DNA from: a virus
Taxonomy: Duplodnaviria > Caudoviricetes
Virus record (IMG/VR): IMGVR_UViG_3300037722_000155
Location: 1-41,350 of that record
Length of the DNA stretch: 41,350 bases
Strand: one strand, 5' to 3'
Position numbers and translations under genes: made by a program. Shown one piece after another: positions 10,317 to 33,133 of the stretch (positions are counted from its first letter, which is position 1; every line of letters begins with the position of its first letter). Below the pieces are notes generated by a model that ran no database searches, was not told the DNA's origin, and was given only the letters and a program-made list of their open reading frames with translations.

Positions 10317-10814
10317 ATGACTATAGGAATCATTGGGGCTAGTGCAGACTCTGTCAAATCCACTTCTGAGCATAGGCTTGGTACACGGTTTACTGACACC
10401 AACGGAGTTGAGTATCTCTATTGCCAAGCTGATGGAGACCTGACCCCTGCGGGAGAAGCTGTGGCGCTTGCTATTGATGAGGACTATCAAGTTACCGAGC
10501 TTACGACAGCTCTGGCGCTTGTGGGTCATCGGATCGGCTGGGCTCCACAGGTCACTGTGACGGATGACGACTATTTCTGGGCTCGTATCTCGGGAACTTT
10601 TCCCATTCGTGTAGTAGCTCAGTGCGCTGCCGATATCCAATTGTACACGACGGCGACCGCTGGTGTTCTGGACGATGCGTCCGGCACTGGTTCGCTGGCG
10701 CGTATTGATGGTGTCGTCATCACTGCTGCTGCGGGTTCGTCTTCGGCCTCCGGTGCTGGTCTGGAGATAGACGCGCTCGTAACGAGTGGCGGAGCTTTCG
10801 TGGTTGCTGTCTAG
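10317..10814 (+). CDS. Capsid cement/decoration protein
   Basis: LGTRFTDTNGVEYLYCQA; Ala/Gly/Thr-rich; follows the MCP. Confidence 0.7.
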   Translation: MTIGIIGASADSVKSTSEHRLGTRFTDTNGVEYLYCQADGDLTPAGEAVALAIDEDYQVTELTTALALVGHRIGWAPQVTVTDDDYFWARISGTFPIRVVAQCAADIQLYTTATAGVLDDASGTGSLARIDGVVITAAAGSSSASGAGLEIDALVTSGGAFVVAV

Positions 10815-12217
10815 TGTCTGCTGCCCCGCAAGTGGGTGAAGTGGTCGGGGGCGCTGGTCGCCCCCGACCTTTTGGCAACCCTCTAAATTTCAAGATCTCT
10901 ACGAATGTTGAGTCTGAAAAGCTCTCAGAAAACGTAAAGATCAATACAGAGAAGGGGCTCCCCCTACTCTGGCCCTCTGAGTCTTTAAGGAATGTTCCCC
11001 TCATCATTGTTGGCGGGGGACCTTCACTTAAGGACTACGTGGAAGATATCCGTGAACTACAAAATCACGGAGCTTATGTCATGGGCTTGAACAAAGCCTA
11101 TCATTTTCTTGTTGAGAATGACGTCATTCCCGAGTATTTTCTCATGTCTGATGGGCGTGTGGAGAATATGCCTCTTAGTGAGGGAATCGACCCGGGGACG
11201 ATGTGTCTACTTGCAAGTCAAGTCCACCCAGATGTTGTTGAGGCCTTTGCTTCTCAGTACAGCACTTTTCTTTATCACCTGTATACAGACTCCACGAAGA
11301 TCGTTACTCAGAAAGACCCCGCTCCGAAGCCCTATATTCTCGCCCCTGTGGGGGTATCCGGATATTATGGGATCTACTGTGGTGCGACTATGGGGTACAG
11401 AAATCTTATCTGTTACGGTTTCGACTTCTCCTATGAGAATGGGGATCACCACGCTTTTGAACAGCCCCTGAATGATGATATGCAGATCATTGATGTCAAT
11501 TTCGGGGGGGAGACCTTCTATACGAATGGCATCATGGCCTACGCTGCTGAGAGATTCGCAGCTATGTCTACAGACCTCTATCGTCGGACAGGTACTCAGA
11601 TATCTGTATGTGGTCGAGGACTCCTTCCTGCCCTCCTGCTGGCCGGGAATGCTCGTGGTCAGATTGACGTAGAGGAGCGGGAACGGAAGAAATACCGGGA
11701 TATCTGGGCTACTGAGCAGTACGGAGAAGATTCCTCCCCCGGCATGGATCATGTCCAACTTGCAATGTTGAAGATGGATTGGTCTAAAGGGGATACAGTT
11801 ATTGATTTCGGGTGTGGTAAGGGCGAAGCTGTTTCCCTCCTGAGCTCCCTAGGATTCCAGGCTCGGGGTGTAGACATCGCCTCTAATGCAGTTGCTCATG
11901 ACATTCAGTTTACTGAAGTGTGTCTTTGGAATCTTCCTAAGGATATCCGGGCAGACTGGGGGTATTGCTGTGACGTGATGGAGCACATTCCCACTGAGAA
12001 GGTTCAGGAAACTTTGAAGTGCATTGCTGATGCAGTTGATAAAGGAATTTACTTCAACATTGCTACAGAGGATGATTGCTCGGGGGCGATGATTGGTTTT
12101 CGCCTACATCTTACGGTTATGAAAGCATCAGCCTGGACTGCTCTGTTGAAACAACATTTTTCACATGTTGAGGTTCTCGAAAGCGAATTCTCATCTATCT
12201 TCGTCTGCAAGAAATAG
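10814..12217 (+). CDS. Maf/DUF115 (MptE-like) domain fused to class I SAM methyltransferase
   Basis: IIVGGGPSL...GLNKAY...MSDGR...YGFDFSY in the N half; VIDFGCGKG and CCDVMEHIP in the C half. Confidence 0.8.
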   Translation: MSAAPQVGEVVGGAGRPRPFGNPLNFKISTNVESEKLSENVKINTEKGLPLLWPSESLRNVPLIIVGGGPSLKDYVEDIRELQNHGAYVMGLNKAYHFLVENDVIPEYFLMSDGRVENMPLSEGIDPGTMCLLASQVHPDVVEAFASQYSTFLYHLYTDSTKIVTQKDPAPKPYILAPVGVSGYYGIYCGATMGYRNLICYGFDFSYENGDHHAFEQPLNDDMQIIDVNFGGETFYTNGIMAYAAERFAAMSTDLYRRTGTQISVCGRGLLPALLLAGNARGQIDVEERERKKYRDIWATEQYGEDSSPGMDHVQLAMLKMDWSKGDTVIDFGCGKGEAVSLLSSLGFQARGVDIASNAVAHDIQFTEVCLWNLPKDIRADWGYCCDVMEHIPTEKVQETLKCIADAVDKGIYFNIATEDDCSGAMIGFRLHLTVMKASAWTALLKQHFSHVEVLESEFSSIFVCKK

Positions 12218-22981: not shown

Positions 22982-23260
22982 CTAATCCTGATTGACATAG
23001 CCGGGACCAGCGTCTTCTCCCTTCTCAGCCTCTAAGACTTCGATGTACTTCCCAAGCTCGTGATGAGCTTTCCGTAAGTCCTGGAGACCGCCCTTCCGCT
23101 GCCAGCGGAACAGGTGTTTGGTGATCATGTACATGAACATATCCCACTTGGCGAGCCAAGCGAGATCCCAATGTTCGATTCCCACCCCGCAATGAGGGCA
23201 GGGGATCGCACCATCTTTGTAGTGCGACCCCCCTTCTTGCCGATCGTTTGCGGCTACCAC
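22982..23260 (-). CDS. DUF3310 (SaV/T7 gp1.7-like) protein, putative nucleotide kinase
   Basis: QEGGSHYK...KHLFRWQRKGGLQDLRKA. Confidence 0.8.
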   Translation of the reverse strand: MVAANDRQEGGSHYKDGAIPCPHCGVGIEHWDLAWLAKWDMFMYMITKHLFRWQRKGGLQDLRKAHHELGKYIEVLEAEKGEDAGPGYVNQD

Positions 23261-23382
23261 AGCAGGAACTTGCTGGCTTCCAGGACTACAATAGCCCAGA
23301 TAGCCAACTCAATTCTGACCGCTTGGGTCAGTCTCCGGCTCCGGTTCATTTTCCGAAGAATCGGATCGGTTGTTGCATTCAT
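23254..23382 (-). CDS. 42-aa membrane peptide (not in ORF track)
   Basis: AGGAG RBS; MNATTDP...ELAIWAIVVLEASKFLLW. Confidence 0.5.
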   Translation of the reverse strand: MNATTDPILRKMNRSRRLTQAVRIELAIWAIVVLEASKFLLW

Positions 23383-23887
23383 TTGTCAAATCTCCTATTA
23401 AACTACGAACACGTGAGGCTACAACCCCACTTGGTAATTTTAAGCTATGAAGGTGGGAAAGGCCATTATCCAGAACATAAAGAGCGTCTTGGTTCCCCAT
23501 TCGGATTTCCTTCCTCGCCTTGTAGCAGAGCTGAAGCATGTCCGCAGCCTTCAATACGACCTTTTCTTCTGGGGTAATTTCTTCGATCACAATACCTATA
23601 TCCAACAAGTATTGCCCCTCGATTCTATCGAGAAGTTTTTTCAGTTCTGGATAATCCCTCTTGGCGGGGAAGGGAGCGTCTCCGGTGTAATACTCTGCGA
23701 AATCATGAAGCAGAGCGGTGACGAGCAGTTCTCTGCTCGCGTTCCCATCTGTAATAATGAGACAGAACATGAGCACTCCGGCGGTGTGCTCCCCAACTGT
23801 TTCTTCAGAGCTAACAAACTCTGTGTGATATCGACGCACATGGAAGTTCTCAATGGTGAGTCGGCTTAGAAATACTTCTTCGCTCAA
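23309..23887 (-). CDS. HD-domain deoxynucleotide phosphohydrolase (YfbR/DatZ-like)
   Basis: RRYHT...GEH...LLHDFAEYYTGD...AAD; start uncertain (TTG 23887 chosen). Confidence 0.85.
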   Translation of the reverse strand: MSEEVFLSRLTIENFHVRRYHTEFVSSEETVGEHTAGVLMFCLIITDGNASRELLVTALLHDFAEYYTGDAPFPAKRDYPELKKLLDRIEGQYLLDIGIVIEEITPEEKVVLKAADMLQLCYKARKEIRMGNQDALYVLDNGLSHLHSLKLPSGVVASRVRSLIGDLTNECNNRSDSSENEPEPETDPSGQN

Positions 23888-24815
23888 CCCACTGGAGAGC
23901 TGCAAACTTCCAATCTTCTGCCCTAACTTTGCTGATCCATTCATCTCTATTCTCCCGGTCTAGGTAGGCTCGTATCATGGGGTAGCCGACACTGGTCACC
24001 CAATAAGTTCTAAATTCTTGCACTTGTGAATGGTAGACCATATCAATGCAATCAGCCATGAGGTCTTCGTAGGTCTCCCCACATACGAGAAGAGTATCGG
24101 GCTTTACTGTTCCATAGCAATCGTAATGGTCAGTAGTCTTTTTCAACTCCCTTCCATTCGGCATGTCTGGATAGAAGTGAAGGTTATTGGTGAAAACTCT
24201 GTAGTCCCCAATAGGTATCTTAGTTGAGAGCGCCACTAACTCGTGCAGATAAGTCATATGGACAGCATTCGCTCCCAGCATTCCCCACACCATGTCGTTA
24301 GATCTATTGCATACTGTCATATCTAAACCCCCGTTGACGTATCGGAAATAGATATGAGTATTGCAGGGTCGGTCGCTTGTCTTGGCATGGGCTCCGTCAT
24401 AGACGGGATCCCACATAGAGATCACGGCCTGTCTAGTGTTGGGGTCATGCTGAAGTAAATCAATGACATTACTAATTTGATCTCTTGGGTGTCGCCATCT
24501 CCACCCATAAGCTCCACGGAGTACCCCATCATCTGCGTACTCACTCATCCTCTTGTTGAATTGGCTGATCCACTCAGCATCATTTGACCCGGCCATCATC
24601 CAAATCCACTCAGCTACGTGAAAGAATGGGTTGGCATCACGGATGGGATCAAACAGAACTCTCTGTAGTGGGTATCTAATCGTTAAAAGGCTCGGGTAGG
24701 GAACAGTCAATACAGACCCATTCCGACTCTGTTCCTCAACCCACACGTTGCGGGCCTTCCACCACATCTCAGAGTATGCTCTCGGAACGTTAAGAGCGTT
24801 TATTTCTAAAATCAT
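23850..24815 (-). CDS. Thymidylate synthase-family enzyme, probable dUMP hydroxymethylase
   Basis: RDANPFFH, DRPCN, RSNDMVWGMLGANAVH, NNLHFY; Asn at the dUMP-specificity position. Confidence 0.85.
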   Translation of the reverse strand: MILEINALNVPRAYSEMWWKARNVWVEEQSRNGSVLTVPYPSLLTIRYPLQRVLFDPIRDANPFFHVAEWIWMMAGSNDAEWISQFNKRMSEYADDGVLRGAYGWRWRHPRDQISNVIDLLQHDPNTRQAVISMWDPVYDGAHAKTSDRPCNTHIYFRYVNGGLDMTVCNRSNDMVWGMLGANAVHMTYLHELVALSTKIPIGDYRVFTNNLHFYPDMPNGRELKKTTDHYDCYGTVKPDTLLVCGETYEDLMADCIDMVYHSQVQEFRTYWVTSVGYPMIRAYLDRENRDEWISKVRAEDWKFAALQWVERRSISKPTHH

Positions 24816-24943
24816 GCTTGTAACCTACTGTTTTATAAGGCATTCTTAACCACTTTGCGTCGAAGGCGTCGGGGTAACGGGCAATAGCATGGCCTTGCCC
24901 ATACCCCGATTTAGCCTGTCGATGCGTCTGAGTGGGCCTATTT

Positions 24944-25789
24944 TTAGGTCTTACCTGGATATTTGCGCTTGCTGCGCCCGGTGCCAGTCAAGACCCGACA
25001 ATACTTATCAAACTCACAAAGACAGTTCTGTAGGTCCTGCATGTGGATGTCCCCTACAGTATCGAATATTCTAGGTCGCACATACTGGGCGACTTCTTCT
25101 ATGTCTTGCTGATACGTTCTTGCTGTAACCCTTCTGTCGTGGAACCAAGCCAAACCTCTAAGTGATCCAGGTCCGGGAGCAGAGAATGTCCACCAATCTT
25201 CAGCCTCCGCAAGGGGATGATTCGGAGTATTCTTAAGATCTGCAATAATCTGCGCAGATAGGAAGGAGCCAATTCCATCCATACGTTGAAGTTCAACGTG
25301 ATAGCCTCTACAGGTGTCGACATCAACAAGGGGTAGTCGTCTTGCCGCCTCAGTAAGAACTCCGATACAGTAGTCCAACTTAGGCATCTTCTGACCATGA
25401 GTGGTAATGACATAAGCTCCTCCCCAGATTTTCCTTCCTCTCTCCTGTTCTCCTCGGAGAATTCCCTCAACGTACCCCAAGTCTGAAGTCCTCAACCATC
25501 CAAGAATAGCAGCCAGAGTAGGTGGCCAGTTGAATATACGAGCAGCGACCATCGCTAATTCATAGTTCTGAAAATACTCTGACTTGTAGTTATCACGAAT
25601 CCATCGAGTTACCCTATCGTCCTCCCGATGGACATTGCAGAAGTAAGTCTCCTGGAATACCCAGTCCGTGCTCCACGGCTTCGGTTCATCATGTTCTTTA
25701 AGAACTCGTATCTGTTCCCTCTCGAGAATCCAGTAGACCAGCAACTCCGGCTTCGTATAATCTTTTCCATTGACCTGTAAAATCGACAC
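24944..25789 (-). CDS. 5-hmdU DNA kinase-like protein (helical domain, formerly aGPT-Pplase1)
   Basis: YWILEREQIR..PWSTD..F...FCNVHREDDRVT, RIFNWP, PGPGS.RGL, QNCLCEFDKY; GGAGGAG RBS before GTG 25789. Confidence 0.85.
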   Translation of the reverse strand: MSILQVNGKDYTKPELLVYWILEREQIRVLKEHDEPKPWSTDWVFQETYFCNVHREDDRVTRWIRDNYKSEYFQNYELAMVAARIFNWPPTLAAILGWLRTSDLGYVEGILRGEQERGRKIWGGAYVITTHGQKMPKLDYCIGVLTEAARRLPLVDVDTCRGYHVELQRMDGIGSFLSAQIIADLKNTPNHPLAEAEDWWTFSAPGPGSLRGLAWFHDRRVTARTYQQDIEEVAQYVRPRIFDTVGDIHMQDLQNCLCEFDKYCRVLTGTGRSKRKYPGKT

Positions 25790-26516
25790 GCTCTCCTCCC
25801 ATCCAATTATTCTTGGCTTTCTTAACTTTTGCTTTGATATAAGGCCCGAAACGTTCCTCCAGCCAGTAGCAGGCTTCGGCTTGCATTTCGGGAGTTCTGT
25901 AGTCTGAGCAGCCACCTGGAGCTTGGCAAGTTCCCCAGTCTACGCAGAAATCTGTTATCAGCTTATTCCCCTGTCCCCGACTCAACAGCGTAGCGTTGAG
26001 GATGACGTCCGCTAGTATGGGGAAGCGATACAGGTCAGGTATTTGCCCAATCATACTACGATTTAGTCCCTGCACACATATCACTTTCCCGTTGACTTTG
26101 TACGGGACGGGAGCGGTGTGTCCCATCTGTCTGGGGTGGACTCCCACCAGTGCGGTGTCTTCCAGTAACTGACGAATCATACTAAGACAGTCAGGCATCC
26201 AGTAATTTACTTCATCCCTAGTCTTAATGGTCTGAAGTCCTACAGTTCCGTTGTCCCGCATAACCCGACGGCTGAACACGAGATCATCGTCCAGTATAAG
26301 ACACTTCTGTTGATCGTCCCCCATTCCATCGTATAGAATCCATTCCATCTTTCTGCTGTAGTTATCCACATAGGGGGGGACTTGTATGGTGGGGATACCT
26401 CCGTGGTCTTCCCCTTCAGGGCAGACTAGGAATGTTTGGGGTCTCCAGCTATCGGGAATAGATTCATAGGTCCGCTGATTACCGACACGGCCTCGAGTCA
26501 TTATATAGATGTTCAT
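25698..26516 (-). CDS. GREB1-like/TET-associated (TAGT) glycosyltransferase
   Basis: IYIMTRGR, ILDDDL (DxD), GGCSDYRT, QWKRLY. Confidence 0.75.
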   Translation of the reverse strand: MNIYIMTRGRVGNQRTYESIPDSWRPQTFLVCPEGEDHGGIPTIQVPPYVDNYSRKMEWILYDGMGDDQQKCLILDDDLVFSRRVMRDNGTVGLQTIKTRDEVNYWMPDCLSMIRQLLEDTALVGVHPRQMGHTAPVPYKVNGKVICVQGLNRSMIGQIPDLYRFPILADVILNATLLSRGQGNKLITDFCVDWGTCQAPGGCSDYRTPEMQAEACYWLEERFGPYIKAKVKKAKNNWMGGERVDFTGQWKRLYEAGVAGLLDSREGTDTSS

Positions 26517-26535
26517 CTTTCAATCCTCAGGTCAG

Positions 26536-26567
26536 AAAAAGCCCTGCCTCCGGGAGAAGGCAGGGCT
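26536..26567 (-). terminator. Rho-independent terminator
   Basis: AGCCCTGCCT/AGGCAGGGCT stem followed by a T-run. Confidence 0.8.
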
Positions 26568-26588
26568 CAAAAACGCCGTCGTGGGGGA

Positions 26589-26951
26589 CTACTTGGCGTC
26601 GGGCTTTGGGGCTTCCGGGGGTGCTGTCAGGGTACAGGCACCATCCTGAACGAAGAACCGTAGCCAGCCTCTGGCAGGGTCCTTCATCTTCTTGGCAGAT
26701 TCGGCAAACTGCTCGACAGTCTTGCCGTTCGCAGCTTTCAGAAGATCGTACCATTCTCCGCGTTGTCCGCGGTATTTCTTTTCGGTTTCGACCACGGTAA
26801 TTTTCGCAGTAGGGGCGAAGCCGTAATCTTGTCGGGGGGCTCGTTCTTTCTTCTCGCCGTTGGTCGCTTCGTCTCCCTTCCCAGAGGCTTTGTTCTTGTC
26901 GGAAGTCGGTGGCTTGCTCGGCGGGGCGGATGCTTTGGCTTCTTCGGCCAT
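26589..26951 (-). CDS. Small basic protein, paralogue of 40241-40501
   Basis: Own promoter, AAGGAG RBS and terminator. Confidence 0.8.
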   Translation of the reverse strand: MAEEAKASAPPSKPPTSDKNKASGKGDEATNGEKKERAPRQDYGFAPTAKITVVETEKKYRGQRGEWYDLLKAANGKTVEQFAESAKKMKDPARGWLRFFVQDGACTLTAPPEAPKPDAK

Positions 26952-26994
26952 GTTGTTCTCCTTGTTTGAGAATGATATTGTCAGTGACAGGGTC

Positions 26995-27023
26995 AGTATA
27001 AAGGGATACAGTCATGAATGCAA
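26995..27023 (-). promoter_or_regulatory. Sigma70-type promoter
   Basis: TTGCAT-17-TATACT. Confidence 0.75.
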
Positions 27024-27026
27024 CCC

Positions 27027-27389
27027 CTATTTACTCGGAACCTTAGTAATGTGTCCCGGATCGCAATAATTCAGAAAATTGGCCCATTTTAGGACATCTT
27101 CATCGATGTCGCCCCCAACATACATCATATCTACGTATGTCTGTATTCGCTGACTGAACGTTACCCCGACAAAGCTCACTTCTCTAAAAATCAACCATGC
27201 GGGAATGGTGTTGAATATGATATCAGAAGGTCCTCCAATCACATACCAAATCTTTCCTGTGATACGAATTCCTCGGGGGGTCTCTATCCCCGCTTTCTTC
27301 GCCCCTTCTACCATCGTTATTAGTGGAAAAGCTGTGAAGATTACGAAGGTCGACAGCAAGACCGTTGTTACAAGCCAGAAAATCCACAT
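27027..27389 (-). CDS. Membrane protein
   Basis: N-terminal TM; DIIFN...TFSQR...DPGH. Confidence 0.7.
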   Translation of the reverse strand: MWIFWLVTTVLLSTFVIFTAFPLITMVEGAKKAGIETPRGIRITGKIWYVIGGPSDIIFNTIPAWLIFREVSFVGVTFSQRIQTYVDMMYVGGDIDEDVLKWANFLNYCDPGHITKVPSK

Positions 27390-27390
27390 C

Positions 27391-28758
27391 TTATTTCTCC
27401 GTAATTTTTTCTAAGAGTCCGTCTTGAAATTCTTCTTTGTCGTTCAGAGTTTTCACCACATCCTCATCCTTTGTCCCCCTAGCAATGATCCTATAGACAA
27501 AAACTGACTCTTCTTTTTGCCCTTGACGATAGATTCTGGCGATGGCTTGTTCGTAGTGTTCATAGTTCCACGTTAGTCCGAACCAAATGATGTGATTACA
27601 GGCCTCTTGTAGATTTAGTCCGTGGGCCATGCTTCCAGGCTGGCAGAACATTACAGGGATTTCTCCTCGATTAAAGGATTGAATGTACTGATCTGCTGTT
27701 CTAGCGTCTGTACCAGCTCCAATAACAGGGGTATCGCTGCCGTAGCGTTGTAGAAGTCTCTGGAGGTCATGATTAAATTCGTACATGACAAGGGTTGGTG
27801 CTCCCTGAAGCTCCGCAAGGAGTGAATCAAGTGCTTCAAGTTTTGCATTATGTAGAGGTTTCCAGTTATGGGCCGAATCTGTATACAGTGCTCCATTTGC
27901 AACTTGTCGTAGCTTTCCTCCAGCGACTGCTGCGTTTGCTGCGATGATAACGTCTTCTCCCCATTCTGCGAGGAACTCATCATCTAACTCCTTATAAAAT
28001 TCCCAAATCTTGGGGGGCATATCCACATAGATGTCTGTAGGGGGAGGAAGCTTCGGCATTCTGAGCCAATCCTCCGCCTTAAGTCTTATCAGTAGAGGGT
28101 CTATTCGGTCGAGTATTCGGTCAAATGACCCTTCCTTTAGCATGTAGTCATACTCCCTCCAAGCCAGTGTGTAGAAAAATTCATTTCGGTAGTGGGTAAT
28201 GAATCTTCCTAATGCCCTTCCTAGGTCTAGTATGAATGTTTGGCCGAATAAATCCAGCGCGCCGTTCGGTACGGGAGTTCCTGTGAGAATCCATCTCCTC
28301 CGAAACCGGGGGAAGTGATGTCTCATCAGTTTGAATCTCGCTGTTTGCGAGTCTTTGAACATCGTACTCTCGTCTACGCATAGAATATCCCACTCCCGCC
28401 ATCTTCTGGCTTTCGGATCATACAGCCATCTTAGGCCGTCAGGATTGATGATATGGATGTCAACGTCCATATCAAGGTGTTCTTGTTTCTTAGTGTCATG
28501 AATTACCGCGTAGGTGAGATCATGGAAGTTAGACCACTTCTCAATCTCACGAGGCCACACGGAATAGCATACCCTCAGCGGGGCCACGACCAACATCCTC
28601 TTAACGAGCCCTTTATCCTTTAGTATCTTGAAGGCGGCTAAGACTGTGGAAGTTTTCCCAAGACCGGGGTCGAAGAACAGGCCCGCCGAAGCTTGAGAGA
28701 GCATTAAGCGGATAGAGTTCTCTTGATAGTGATGTGGGGTCCAAATCCCAGAAGACAT
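27391..28758 (-). CDS. SNF2-family helicase
   Basis: DPGLGKT, CVDES, LTGTP, HGLNLQ, QAIARIYRQGQ. Confidence 0.92.
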   Translation of the reverse strand: MSSGIWTPHHYQENSIRLMLSQASAGLFFDPGLGKTSTVLAAFKILKDKGLVKRMLVVAPLRVCYSVWPREIEKWSNFHDLTYAVIHDTKKQEHLDMDVDIHIINPDGLRWLYDPKARRWREWDILCVDESTMFKDSQTARFKLMRHHFPRFRRRWILTGTPVPNGALDLFGQTFILDLGRALGRFITHYRNEFFYTLAWREYDYMLKEGSFDRILDRIDPLLIRLKAEDWLRMPKLPPPTDIYVDMPPKIWEFYKELDDEFLAEWGEDVIIAANAAVAGGKLRQVANGALYTDSAHNWKPLHNAKLEALDSLLAELQGAPTLVMYEFNHDLQRLLQRYGSDTPVIGAGTDARTADQYIQSFNRGEIPVMFCQPGSMAHGLNLQEACNHIIWFGLTWNYEHYEQAIARIYRQGQKEESVFVYRIIARGTKDEDVVKTLNDKEEFQDGLLEKITEK

Positions 28759-29700: not shown

Positions 29701-29924
29701 GAATCCAATGCCTCGCCCACAGTAATCCCCTTCATGCCTAGAGCACCTTCAGCTCTCCTAAGACGGAGATGTAGGTTCTCCAACATCATACTGACACATA
29801 AAAAAGGATGCGCCACCATGACTTCTTCGTCTATATAGAGCCCCATATCCTCAGCTATACCCCGAGCCTTGTCTCTTATGAATTGCTCAAGCTGTTTTGG
29901 ATCAGTAGGAATATTCGTGCTCAC
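29697..29924 (-). CDS. Hypothetical protein
   Basis: Coupled ORF. Confidence 0.6.
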   Translation of the reverse strand: MSTNIPTDPKQLEQFIRDKARGIAEDMGLYIDEEVMVAHPFLCVSMMLENLHLRLRRAEGALGMKGITVGEALDS

Positions 29925-31701
29925 GTTTAATCTCCTTTAGTGAACCCCATGTTTCCCCTACGAAACCTTCCGATCTCATAGGTACGTCAAATAACTCTTG
30001 GTCCATGGCATGACGAAGCTGAGTCATTTCGTATTGCCAGCTTTCTGCGGGAGCAGAAGCATTGATTTCATCATGCACAGTCGCCATGAACACAGCGTCC
30101 TGCTTGTACTCCTCCCACCAGTCATTTATGACTTCCTTAGTTTGATCTGCCGCACTTCCTTGGATTAGATAATTCAGCAGCTTGTACTCAAAGCTTCTAA
30201 AGACCCCATTCACCGGCTTCCCCTTCTCGGCGTAGTATGGTCTGCCTCCCCATGTGGTTATGTGCCCACCAGACTTACCTCGAAGCCGTGTAGCAGCCGC
30301 GAGGCTATCAACCCCCGGCATAGCCTTAAGGTATGCAGTCCGTATTTCGAAGGCCTCTGAGCGGCTTCTGCCAAGTTGTAGAGCAAGCCCCGGTGCGCCC
30401 GCGCCATAGATAATGCTGAAGCCGGTTATCTTTACGTCTTTACGATCATAAAGAATACCGATCATCACATTAATCATCTGTCTAGCTTGCTCATGTGGGT
30501 CGAAGAAGGGGTCGGAGCGATAAGCCTCCATAAGAGTCCCATCTTCAAAGTGAGCAAGAATACGGATTTCCTGAGAACTAAAGTCTCGCTTAATCCATAG
30601 ATGCCCTTCCTCCGGCAAGAGGTAATCCCTCATATTCGGTAGGGGAGGAAGTCCTTGTGGTATGTCGTGCTTGAACACGTTCGGAATATTTTGGAAGTTG
30701 GGGCGGGAAGAGGACAGCCTCCCCGTCCTAGTTCCGCTGTGCCCATGCTCATCATTCGCTACTTGATTCCATGAAGTATGGATTCTTCCATCCTCCTGGC
30801 TGAAACCCTCCCATGGAGTCATGAAAGTGCCCAGACAGGTGGACATTGTAGAACGATAAACTAAAAGGCTGAGTAAGGAGGGGTCACGAAGTCCTGCAAG
30901 GAGATTATCCTTAGACGTGGACTTGCGACCTTTCGGCGTATATCTCCAAGTATGGACAGCGTCCGCCTTTTCAAGCGCATCTGCCAGTTGGATGCCGGAA
31001 TCGATGTTGAAGGGCTCAGCATCAAGTGCAGTGAAGATTCTTGTATCGGCATCCGATAGTGCCCGACCACAAACTTCAATGTCACTCTGTAATCGCCCAC
31101 GGTCAACACGTATTCCGATCTGGCTACTTTCTGTAAGCTTGGGAGCGAGCCTTCTTTCTCTATCATAAGGTTCACTAGGGACTGAAGGATGCAGGTGGTC
31201 AAATAGTTGTCTGGTACGTAGAACGTCACCCTTGGCGTACTTCGCCACCAAAGGGACCGGAGCGCGACATATATAAGCTCCTGCTGTCTTCGGGGTAGCT
31301 TCAGCAACGTTCGCAAGTATCCAGGCATGGAGTTCATCTTGTTCCTCCGGTGGGAAATCAAGGTACCTGTCCGCTAGATCTTTAAGATGTAGGGAAGGAG
31401 AATATGGGTCAGCGATAAAAGACAAAAACAGAGTATCATGCACACGAGTCCAGTTAGGAGTCGGGACACTAAACCATCTCGTTGCGACAGGAATATCAAA
31501 GCCCCACCCGTTATGAAATAGAAGACTATAACGAGTATCCCCAAAATAGACTGAAAGAAATTCAGCCATTCTGTCCCAGTCTGTGACATAGGTAGGCTCC
31601 TGACCATCAAGGTAGATGGCGAGACCGACCGGTCTGGGCGGTCTCGCCATCGGGTTCCCGTCAATGGCCTCCGTTTCGAAGTCCAATGTGACGAGTGACA
31701 T
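29902..31701 (-). CDS. polA: Family A DNA polymerase with 3'-5' exonuclease
   Basis: DFET/HN..FD/YAKGD exo motifs; TGRLSS, DFSSQEIR, RxxxKxxxFxxxYG, IQGSAAD, VHDE. Confidence 0.95.
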   Translation of the reverse strand: MSLVTLDFETEAIDGNPMARPPRPVGLAIYLDGQEPTYVTDWDRMAEFLSVYFGDTRYSLLFHNGWGFDIPVATRWFSVPTPNWTRVHDTLFLSFIADPYSPSLHLKDLADRYLDFPPEEQDELHAWILANVAEATPKTAGAYICRAPVPLVAKYAKGDVLRTRQLFDHLHPSVPSEPYDRERRLAPKLTESSQIGIRVDRGRLQSDIEVCGRALSDADTRIFTALDAEPFNIDSGIQLADALEKADAVHTWRYTPKGRKSTSKDNLLAGLRDPSLLSLLVYRSTMSTCLGTFMTPWEGFSQEDGRIHTSWNQVANDEHGHSGTRTGRLSSSRPNFQNIPNVFKHDIPQGLPPLPNMRDYLLPEEGHLWIKRDFSSQEIRILAHFEDGTLMEAYRSDPFFDPHEQARQMINVMIGILYDRKDVKITGFSIIYGAGAPGLALQLGRSRSEAFEIRTAYLKAMPGVDSLAAATRLRGKSGGHITTWGGRPYYAEKGKPVNGVFRSFEYKLLNYLIQGSAADQTKEVINDWWEEYKQDAVFMATVHDEINASAPAESWQYEMTQLRHAMDQELFDVPMRSEGFVGETWGSLKEIKREHEYSY

Positions 31702-32467: not shown

Positions 32468-32497
32468 AGTATAACATAATAATGTAATGTCGTGCTA
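32468..32497 (-). promoter_or_regulatory. Sigma70-type promoter for the replication operon
   Basis: TAGCAC-18-TATACT with TGn extension. Confidence 0.6.
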
Positions 32498-33133
32498 GTG
32501 AAAAATGTTCGGGTCAGGCAACTCCATGGCTTCTCGAGTGAAGTCCAGCCCATACTTTTCATAGACAGGAAATAGATCTGAGAAATCCCCTACGACAAAT
32601 TTAGAGGGTTGGACCCAAGTATGATCCACAACTTTCGCTAGTTCTTCTTGCTTATCTATATAGAACTGAGCATAGTCCTCCCAACGACCTGTTGGTCCTG
32701 GGTCTTTCATAAATGGTGCTCGTTCCAACGAATCGACTACCTTCTCAAGCGGCCTATCTGTAAAGACCCAATGAGCGTTGGGAAATGCTTTCTGGTAGAC
32801 TTGCCAGATTAAAAGAGCTTTTGAGTTCTTGTAGACCCAAGGCTGGTCTATCCAACCTTCCCTACGAATAATGCGAAATACGTTCTCTCTTAAGAAAGGC
32901 TCCGGCTGTAGCTTATCCGTTCTTAAGTCCCCTTGGCCGAGTTTGCTAAGACCTCTACGACTAAGCAGAGGTTTACAAATCTTTTCTCGGAGAACAATGT
33001 GCTCGTAAAATCCCTTGGGATTATACTCAGTTCCTGGAACACATCTCCCGTACCACGCTCCAGACAAAGCAATGAGTCCAGTAGTTAGAGAAGTTCCGGA
33101 TCTTGGCGGTCCTGCGACTATAATTGGGTCCAC
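32495..33133 (-). CDS. Sulfotransferase-family (PAPS-binding P-loop) protein
   Basis: IIVAGPPRSGTS, NPKGFYE, WVYK, R...VVDSL. Confidence 0.8.
   Translation of the reverse strand: MDPIIVAGPPRSGTSLTTGLIALSGAWYGRCVPGTEYNPKGFYEHIVLREKICKPLLSRRGLSKLGQGDLRTDKLQPEPFLRENVFRIIRREGWIDQPWVYKNSKALLIWQVYQKAFPNAHWVFTDRPLEKVVDSLERAPFMKDPGPTGRWEDYAQFYIDKQEELAKVVDHTWVQPSKFVVGDFSDLFPVYEKYGLDFTREAMELPDPNIFH

Follow-up and report, generated by a model that had tools for sequence, protein, structure and literature searches.

We analysed a five-gene cluster in the IMG/VR virus record IMGVR_UViG_3300037722_000155, whose whole stretch of 41,350 nucleotides is called the window here, and propose that it directs the synthesis of a glycosylated, base-J-like uracil. 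In this reading, to which we assign a probability of roughly 65%, a thymidylate synthase (TS)-type dUMP hydroxymethylase would supply 5-hydroxymethyluracil (5-hmU) and a glycosyltransferase (GT) would place a sugar directly on its hydroxyl, yielding 5-(glycosyloxymethyl)uracil by a route that uses neither a kinase nor amino-acid transfer. With a 127-nt terminal repeat and a completeness estimate of 100%, the window represents an entire tailed-phage genome of ~41 kb, and the cluster comprises five adjacent open reading frames (ORFs) on the minus strand (22982..26516) that are conserved in relatives. An earlier note made from the letters of this DNA was right about the complete genome and the co-oriented genes, which it had read as a GREB1/TAGT-like GT, a helical protein resembling a 5-hydroxymethyldeoxyuridine (5-hmdU) kinase, a TS-family enzyme, an HD hydrolase and DUF3310, with the GT standing where an amino-acid:DNA transferase (AADT) is expected. 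The features of the cluster are, from high to low coordinates:

25698..26516, minus strand: GT-A glycosyltransferase, TAGT-like, 272 aa, predicted from profiles and fold to glycosylate 5-hmU in DNA at its 5-hydroxymethyl group
24944..25789, minus strand: aGPT-Pplase1 (PF18723, 1e-32; M6 gp55 family), with an AADT/helix-hairpin-helix (HhH)-glycosylase fold by structure match
24816..24943, minus strand: spacer separating the aGPT-Pplase1 and TS genes, predicted to form a hairpin and carrying a TAAAACAnnnGGTTAC motif conserved in relatives, a possible regulatory element
23850..24815, minus strand: thymidylate-synthase-family enzyme, predicted dUMP hydroxymethylase, 37.5% identical to M6 gp58
23309..23944, minus strand: HD-domain 5'-deoxynucleotidase, YfbR-like, accessory (PF12917, 1e-13); the start is possibly TTG 23887
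22982..23260, minus strand: DUF3310-like small protein (phrog_5839, 7e-9; similarity to a PF11753 protein)

Kinase, GT-A and GT-B enzymes swap within one position of this cluster, repeatedly on the tree. Among the best 80 of 535 loci fetched with an aGPT-Pplase1 alignment (55 groups at 90% identity), all 80 carried TS, 60 a TAGT and 14 a P-loop kinase, while none carried both; the remaining six comprised three with weak GT-B Pfam matches below cut-off, one of the same blastp family and two cut contigs. Co-occurrence in related loci, proposed in the earlier note as a check, thus places the GT in the slot of the kinase and not in that of the AADT. At the level of whole records, the kinase model PF18748 was found in 5/5 kinase-type and 0/44 GT-type records, and the clade-2 AADT model PF18724 in 0/49 records of both types (26/49 at least 90% complete; control positive). 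On a quick tree of aGPT-Pplase1 with 90 rows, the kinase label needs eight changes, at least six of them forced by well-supported branches, compared with a shuffled mean of 9.7. A kinase locus (L188) and a locus with two TAGTs (L181) have aGPT-Pplase1 proteins that are 90% and TS proteins that are 84% identical. In DNA, the kinase phosphorylates 5-hmU at its 5-hydroxyl (PMC8989533, in part; here and below, "in part" marks a source of which a portion was available), and, given that the GT swaps with this kinase, it would most simply use the same acceptor.

The neighbourhood of the GT is also consistent with a sugar on a base. aGPT-Pplase1 and TS adjoin the GT in 27/27 of the closest GT loci, and sugar-tailoring genes stand beside the cluster in relatives, namely PfkB kinase, SIS isomerase, HAD phosphatase, epimerase and radical S-adenosylmethionine (SAM)/SPASM genes (L112:12640-14063, L087:14393-14869, L131:2454-3380, L133, L167 and L106). 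Two whole records hold TAGT and TS without aGPT-Pplase1, and adding the sugar would not require this protein. Phages combining kinase, aGPT-Pplase1 and TS were L135, L136, L137, L143 and L173 (whole records G003-G007) as well as L026-L029. G003-G007 have no clade-2 AADT, four of the five being at least 96% complete, and such AADT-less phages of the kinase type may keep the phosphorylated base (5-PmdU) or use aGPT-Pplase1 as transferase. As a separate observation, a pyrimidine-dimer-glycosylase-like gene (PF03013) lies just upstream of the cluster in 19/91 representatives, e.g., L112:8224-9174; none was seen in the window.

The identity of the GT agrees with the earlier note. It matches phrog_842 (6e-21) and a profile built from seven phage GTs (3e-36), six of which are Pfam-TAGT-positive, and many of its relatives, those at 45-60% identity, carry the TAGT model PF20691. 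Its structural model (pLDDT 92.7) has a GT-A fold (Z 12.4, root-mean-square deviation (rmsd) 4.0, 205 aligned), and across 90 sequences DDD76-78 and D170 are invariant and R8 nearly so; the protein thus combines the GT-A fold with the R..DDD..acidic motif, its third motif deviating. Phage GT-A enzymes with the R..DDD..ED motif are similar to the base J glucosyltransferase and add sugars to 5-hydroxymethylcytosine in DNA (bioRxiv 2023.12.21.572611, in part). Sugar transfer by the window GT onto a hydroxymethyl pyrimidine in DNA is predicted from these signatures.

The TS homologue carries RSNDMVWGMLGAN, with the dUMP-type Asn that had been read from the letters, and its residues D148-R-P-C151-N, RSND174 and N183 align with M6 gp58. 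Under the signature rules of PMC13326640 (in part), the catalytic Cys (C151), N183 (=N177), D148 (=L143) and D174 (=D169) are those of a dUMP hydroxymethylase, so that the enzyme is predicted to be dUMP-specific and hydroxymethylating, not of the D169N 5-hydroxy-dCMP type. Asn occupies the N177 position in 78/80 TAGT-linked TS sequences, the other two being unparsed. The HD hydrolase was also correctly named, whereas the small protein is DUF3310-like at most: it has no direct Pfam match and is 40% identical (E 3e-13) to a weakly PF11753-positive protein. The DUF3310-like gene is present in 27/27 closest loci.

The helical protein is the part of the earlier description that changes most: judged by its modelled fold, it is a clade-1 AADT-fold paralogue and no kinase. 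PF18723 matches it over the full length (113.9 bits against a cut-off of 25), hhalign pairs it with M6 gp55-type proteins at 100%, and kinase profiles did not match it; on M6, Pfam assigns gp55 to PF18723 and the kinase gp54 to PF18748. The Pfam title of PF18723, "5-hmdU DNA kinase, helical domain", most likely derives from fusions, e.g., Goe26 gp145 and SP10 gp186, the latter listed as a fusion in PMC5889632 Table 3, where the M6 paralogue labels are reversed relative to PMC8989533 and to the Pfam result here. By itself, the gp186 kinase domain is active, and M6 gp55 is dispensable for the glycinyl product (PMC8989533, in part). The model (pLDDT 94.9) has the AADT PaMx11 gp46 (8z2m) as top structural match (Z 10.6, rmsd 4.1, 210 aligned), ranked first but within 1 Z of Mag1 and DUF2419; the top 25 rows are all AADTs, HhH glycosylases or DUF2419, and helical folds can reach such Z scores by arrangement alone. 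Foldseek returned nothing below E 0.001, a PDB sequence search gave no match, and hhalign against AADT (PF18724) was not significant (E 0.14). An invariant Cys is kept in QNCLCEFDK, and a Cys stands in register of the AADT catalytic Cys in 100/101 aGPT-Pplase1 sequences, while the position of the AADT catalytic Glu is Gln in 95/101; the equivalence to E243/C247 of gp46 comes from motif register and the non-significant hhalign, not from residue-level superposition. The likely start is GTG 25789 (281 aa), based on the ribosome-binding site and the relatives' median of 278 aa, and the longest ORF reaches 25915.

The enzymes of the known amino-acid route were not found in the genome, as the earlier note had stated for AADT, pyridoxal phosphate (PLP) and radical SAM genes. 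PF18748 (5-hmdU kinase; M6 control positive), PF18751 and PF18724 (controls positive) had no match in the genome, and our own profiles for kinase, AADT, PLP enzyme, radical SAM, Nmad5 and dCMP deaminase gave nothing significant in 959 six-frame segments. For TET/JBP genes, of which the note had recognised none either, Pfam gave no Tet_JBP match in the 68 ORFs (of 174) that it covered. The absence of AADT rests on the Pfam searches because our own five-sequence profile missed divergent AADTs that Pfam found (L096, L100 and L116). The M6-type pair of kinase and clade-2 AADT is missing in whole-record searches. An AADT homologue, which the earlier note had named as evidence against its proposal, exists in the loose sense of the clade-1 paralogue and not as a clade-2 enzyme. 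Of the three profile searches it had suggested, a TAGT-type profile matched, while kinase and clade-2 AADT were not found and the PF20691 model was unmatched.

The pathway that we favor would begin with conversion of dUMP into 5-hmdUMP by the TS homologue. Host kinases would produce 5-hmdUTP while the HD enzyme depletes dTMP and dTTP, and the phage family A DNA polymerase (PolA) would build 5-hmdUTP into DNA. O-glycosylation would then take place on DNA, post-replication, probably with a common host nucleoside diphosphate (NDP)-hexose or NDP-N-acetylhexosamine as donor, given that no sugar-synthesis gene was recognised in the genome. The modification would presumably protect against host nucleases.

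Several points weigh against glycosyl-5-hmU as the product. The window GT itself has no Pfam match, the TAGT model PF20691 included, its third motif is ADV where characterised enzymes have ED[YF], with Ala in place of Glu. The named member of phrog_842, going by the family name, presumably adds a second sugar onto an already glucosylated base. TAGT and kinase do occur together in the TET-type clusters L100 and L116, and their mutual exclusion is therefore limited to the setting with TS and aGPT-Pplase1; L096, L100 and L116 each have TET/JBP, amidotransferase, TAGT, amidoligase and AADT in one cluster, to which L100 and L116 add the kinase. Eight loci were left out of the aGPT-Pplase1 tree by a motif filter. 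Asp at the L143 position is found in only 58/80 TAGT-linked TS sequences (10 other, 12 unparsed), and the HD gene is present in 4/27 closest loci and missing from 23/27. Given that dCMP deaminase was not found and HD is often missing, substitution of thymine by the modified base may be partial.

Among the alternatives, the one that survives best, although we consider it improbable, makes aGPT-Pplase1 the true group transferase: the GT, like the kinase in sister phages, would only activate the hydroxyl as a leaving group, aGPT-Pplase1 would put an amine or other nucleophile in its place, and the final base would be no glycoside. The AADT fold and Cys motif of aGPT-Pplase1 are compatible with this, the phiJL001 gene for it has a weak PF18724 match (E 8e-4), five kinase-type records are without clade-2 AADT, and Goe26 has a kinase fusion and no PF18724; SP10, for which PMC5889632 Table 3 shows no detected clade-2 gene, produces glutamyl-thymine. 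However, the dispensability of M6 gp55, the Gln at the catalytic Glu position and the occurrence of TAGT with TS in its absence argue otherwise, and sugar-tailoring neighbours fit poorly with a discarded sugar.

It is likewise improbable, by a shade more, that the DNA holds plain 5-hmU or thymine and that the GT targets virion proteins or the host surface, or else a nucleotide before replication. About 65% of phage GT contigs lack a base-modification neighbour (bioRxiv 2023.12.21.572611, in part), the fold matches of the GT are protein and polysaccharide GTs, and elsewhere in the window further modifying enzymes are encoded, a sulfotransferase and an MptE-like/methyltransferase protein. The constant company of aGPT-Pplase1 and TS in the closest loci and the interchange with a DNA kinase speak against such targets, as do the more distant GT relatives that adjoin TET/JBP (7 loci).

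The route of the earlier note, in which the helical protein serves as the 5-hmU kinase and the GT replaces AADT to give a sugar-phosphate-linked base, has become very improbable. Although the Pfam name of PF18723 invites it and sugar-phosphate thymidines occur in SP-15 and Carin-5 (PMC12686479, in part), the helical protein has the AADT/HhH fold with kinase profiles unmatched, kinase activity resides in a distinct P-loop domain that is active alone (PMC8989533, in part), and neither PF18748, PF18751 nor the kinase profile over the six-frame segments found one in the genome. The glycosylated, base-J-like 5-hmU that the same note offered as another product is the best-supported of its guesses, while 5-PmdU and a sugar-phosphate link are unlikely with no kinase. 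No more probable is an ordinary thymidylate synthase with unmodified T, for which the retained dUMP-specifying Asn and the failure to find dCMP deaminase by profile in the six-frame segments would speak, but which sits badly with the acidic residue at the L143 position, the M6/YuA enzymes as nearest cultured relatives and a TS score far under every NCBIfam ThyA cut-off.

If the sugar step does without aGPT-Pplase1, this protein may serve another purpose. We tentatively suggest that it could be a replication-coupled enzyme returning unglycosylated 5-hmU to thymine via a cysteine adduct and an exocyclic methylene. No 5-hmdU is left in the virions of SP10, phiW-14, M6 and ViI, it having been turned into modified base or thymine (PMC8989533, in part), and the enzyme converting 5-hmdU in DNA to thymidine was stated to be unknown in 2018 (PMC5889632). 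The aGPT-Pplase pair or the clade-1 gene is in these four phages and not in SPO1 (PMC5889632 Table 3), and borohydride with AADT gives thymidine (PMC8989533, in part). The Cys found in 100/101 sequences in register of the AADT catalytic Cys also speaks for this role. In 80 GT-anchored loci, aGPT-Pplase1 was present in 63/66 with TS and 0/14 without; seven of the TS-less loci have TET/JBP (64/77 neighbours scanned), five of these seven being contigs below 9 kb. Long aGPT-Pplase1 homologues (P0241-P0262), mostly single records and some perhaps gene-calling artefacts, are fused with a family A polymerase or a primase/helicase in 20/22 cases, with kinase in 1/22 and with TAGT in 0/22; the lack of GT fusions among these 22 is weak evidence, given that the expected size is near the 533-aa lower limit.

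Against a return to thymine stand the absence of aGPT-Pplase1 from P26218, MW202897 and G012, nine loci (L030-L038) with aGPT-Pplase1 and no TS within the fetched flank, and the Gln in 95/101 sequences at the AADT Glu position. A kinase-less phage would also have no phosphate leaving group, and no reductant-binding domain was seen in aGPT-Pplase1. The broader claim that a large clade of ~40-kb phages makes base J or a sugar variant kinase-free and that aGPT-Pplase1 is a fork-coupled 5-hmU-to-thymine reductase, also in M6, phiW-14 and SP10, is more doubtful still.

Base J is known from trypanosomatid-type eukaryotes, where JBP and JGT make it, and the common element would be a predicted O-glycoside of 5-hmU formed by a GT-A enzyme on DNA. 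Here, in contrast, the nucleotide pool would be the source of 5-hmU instead of oxidation by JBP, and the role would likely be defensive, not regulatory. With M6, PaMx11, ViI, phiW-14 and SP10 (PMC8989533, in part; PMC5889632), the window shares the dUMP hydroxymethylase clade, aGPT-Pplase1, HD, a DUF3310-like gene and the adjacency to PolA; unlike them, it has no P-loop kinase, clade-2 AADT, PLP or radical SAM enzyme, and a GT-A takes the kinase position. A hydroxymethyl pyrimidine handle with a glycosyltransferase is common to T4 glucosyl-hydroxymethylcytosine and TET-associated phage GT-A enzymes (bioRxiv 2023.12.21.572611 and PMC8256090, both in part), but the characterised ones act on cytosine, whereas the TS signature in the window points to uracil. 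The oligosaccharide thymidines of SP-15, YerA41 and Carin-5 are also sugar-bearing thymine derivatives in phage DNA; these systems use a pentyl-type linker, phosphate and a large gene block (PMC12686479, in part), none of which was recognised in the window.

The closest precedents are the cultured phages phiJL001, RSL1 and LuckyBarnes and the HTVC023P-type pelagiphages (PMC9599517), which combine TAGT, aGPT-Pplase1 and TS as the window does; phiJL001 carries all five families. PF18748 and PF18724 had no match over cut-off in phiJL001, RSL1 and LuckyBarnes, whose GTs are only 24-29% identical to the window GT where matched; RSL1 has three GTs and LuckyBarnes two. In RSL1 (L007:5235-13629), three TAGTs, a nucleotidyltransferase, a sulfotransferase and an APS kinase stand beside aGPT-Pplase1 and TS, a combination pointing to a sulfated oligosaccharide base in this cultured phage.

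In 2013, Iyer et al. named TAGT and aGPT-Pplase and reportedly predicted such neighbourhoods; a prior prediction of this pathway is likely. GT-A and ThyS neighbourhoods have been surveyed in silico (bioRxiv 2023.12.21.572611 and PMC8256090, both in part). The gene set is thus known and widespread, and what this analysis adds is the finding that GT and kinase trade places in one slot, together with the argument on aGPT-Pplase1. The earlier note had called the product uncharacterised for this gene set. We found no report of glycosyl-5-hmU measured in phage DNA in the literature searched, which left out most subscription papers, and no such measurement in the available parts of PMC11472151, PMC12686479, PMC7824862, PMC13229309, PMC8256090 and PMC11946847; the set itself, however, had already been noted (PMC9599517; phiJL001). 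If correct, the pathway would be a viral counterpart of base J and a source of a DNA-labelling enzyme for 5-hmU, and genomes would reveal the likely base chemistry through the modular slot (kinase, GT-A or GT-B). With the set present in three cultured phages, it is testable now, and the aGPT-Pplase1 lead touches the open question of 5-hmdU-to-thymidine conversion in DNA raised in PMC5889632.

The cluster sits at the end of a minus-strand replication module (PolA, PD-(D/E)XK nuclease and SNF2 helicase), upstream of whose polymerase gene lies a sulfotransferase ORF:

29902..31701, minus strand: family A DNA polymerase belonging to this replication module (PF00476, 8e-56), syntenic in relatives
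32495..33133, minus strand: viral sulfotransferase-family protein, a possible but unsupported tailoring enzyme (PF13469, E 0.0075; Atlas 0.98 to Sulfotransfer_3 clusters)

The sulfotransferase ORF was considered as the missing P-loop kinase and rejected, given its unmatched kinase profiles and strong sulfotransferase signal. It had no homologue in five related genomes (a search without positive control) or in other viral contigs, and was therefore kept out of the core set.

The window DNA is partly present in 24 public soil or sediment runs, with at least half of its words in 12/24 (one possibly the source run), none of the public runs listed as containing it being an RNA run. Four sequencing runs aligned to the window showed substitutions and no indels, and a single contig from the runs covers 23366-27500. 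The capsid protein is nearest to that of Stenotrophomonas phage BUCT555 (69%), followed by Myxococcus phages Mx9 and Mx8. Palindrome avoidance is mild and uninformative, and a promoter/terminator scan gave chance level only. The TAAAACAnnnGGTTAC motif occurs once in the window (24820-24835), just before TS, and a similar non-coding spacer is seen in ~13/21 related loci listed, the hairpin prediction having been made without a shuffle control. A terminator-like hairpin with a T run (26536-26568) just before the GT gene is visible in the sequence and absent from the scan output. A small basic protein of no known family (26589-26951) is encoded directly upstream of the GT gene in most close relatives. 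In the virion module, the MptE-like and methyltransferase protein (10814-12217) is weakly like the flagellin-modification protein PseD and present in 1/5 relatives. At 345-614, an Acb2/Tad1 hairpin-domain gene (PF24729, 1e-20) likely encodes an anti-defence signal sponge.

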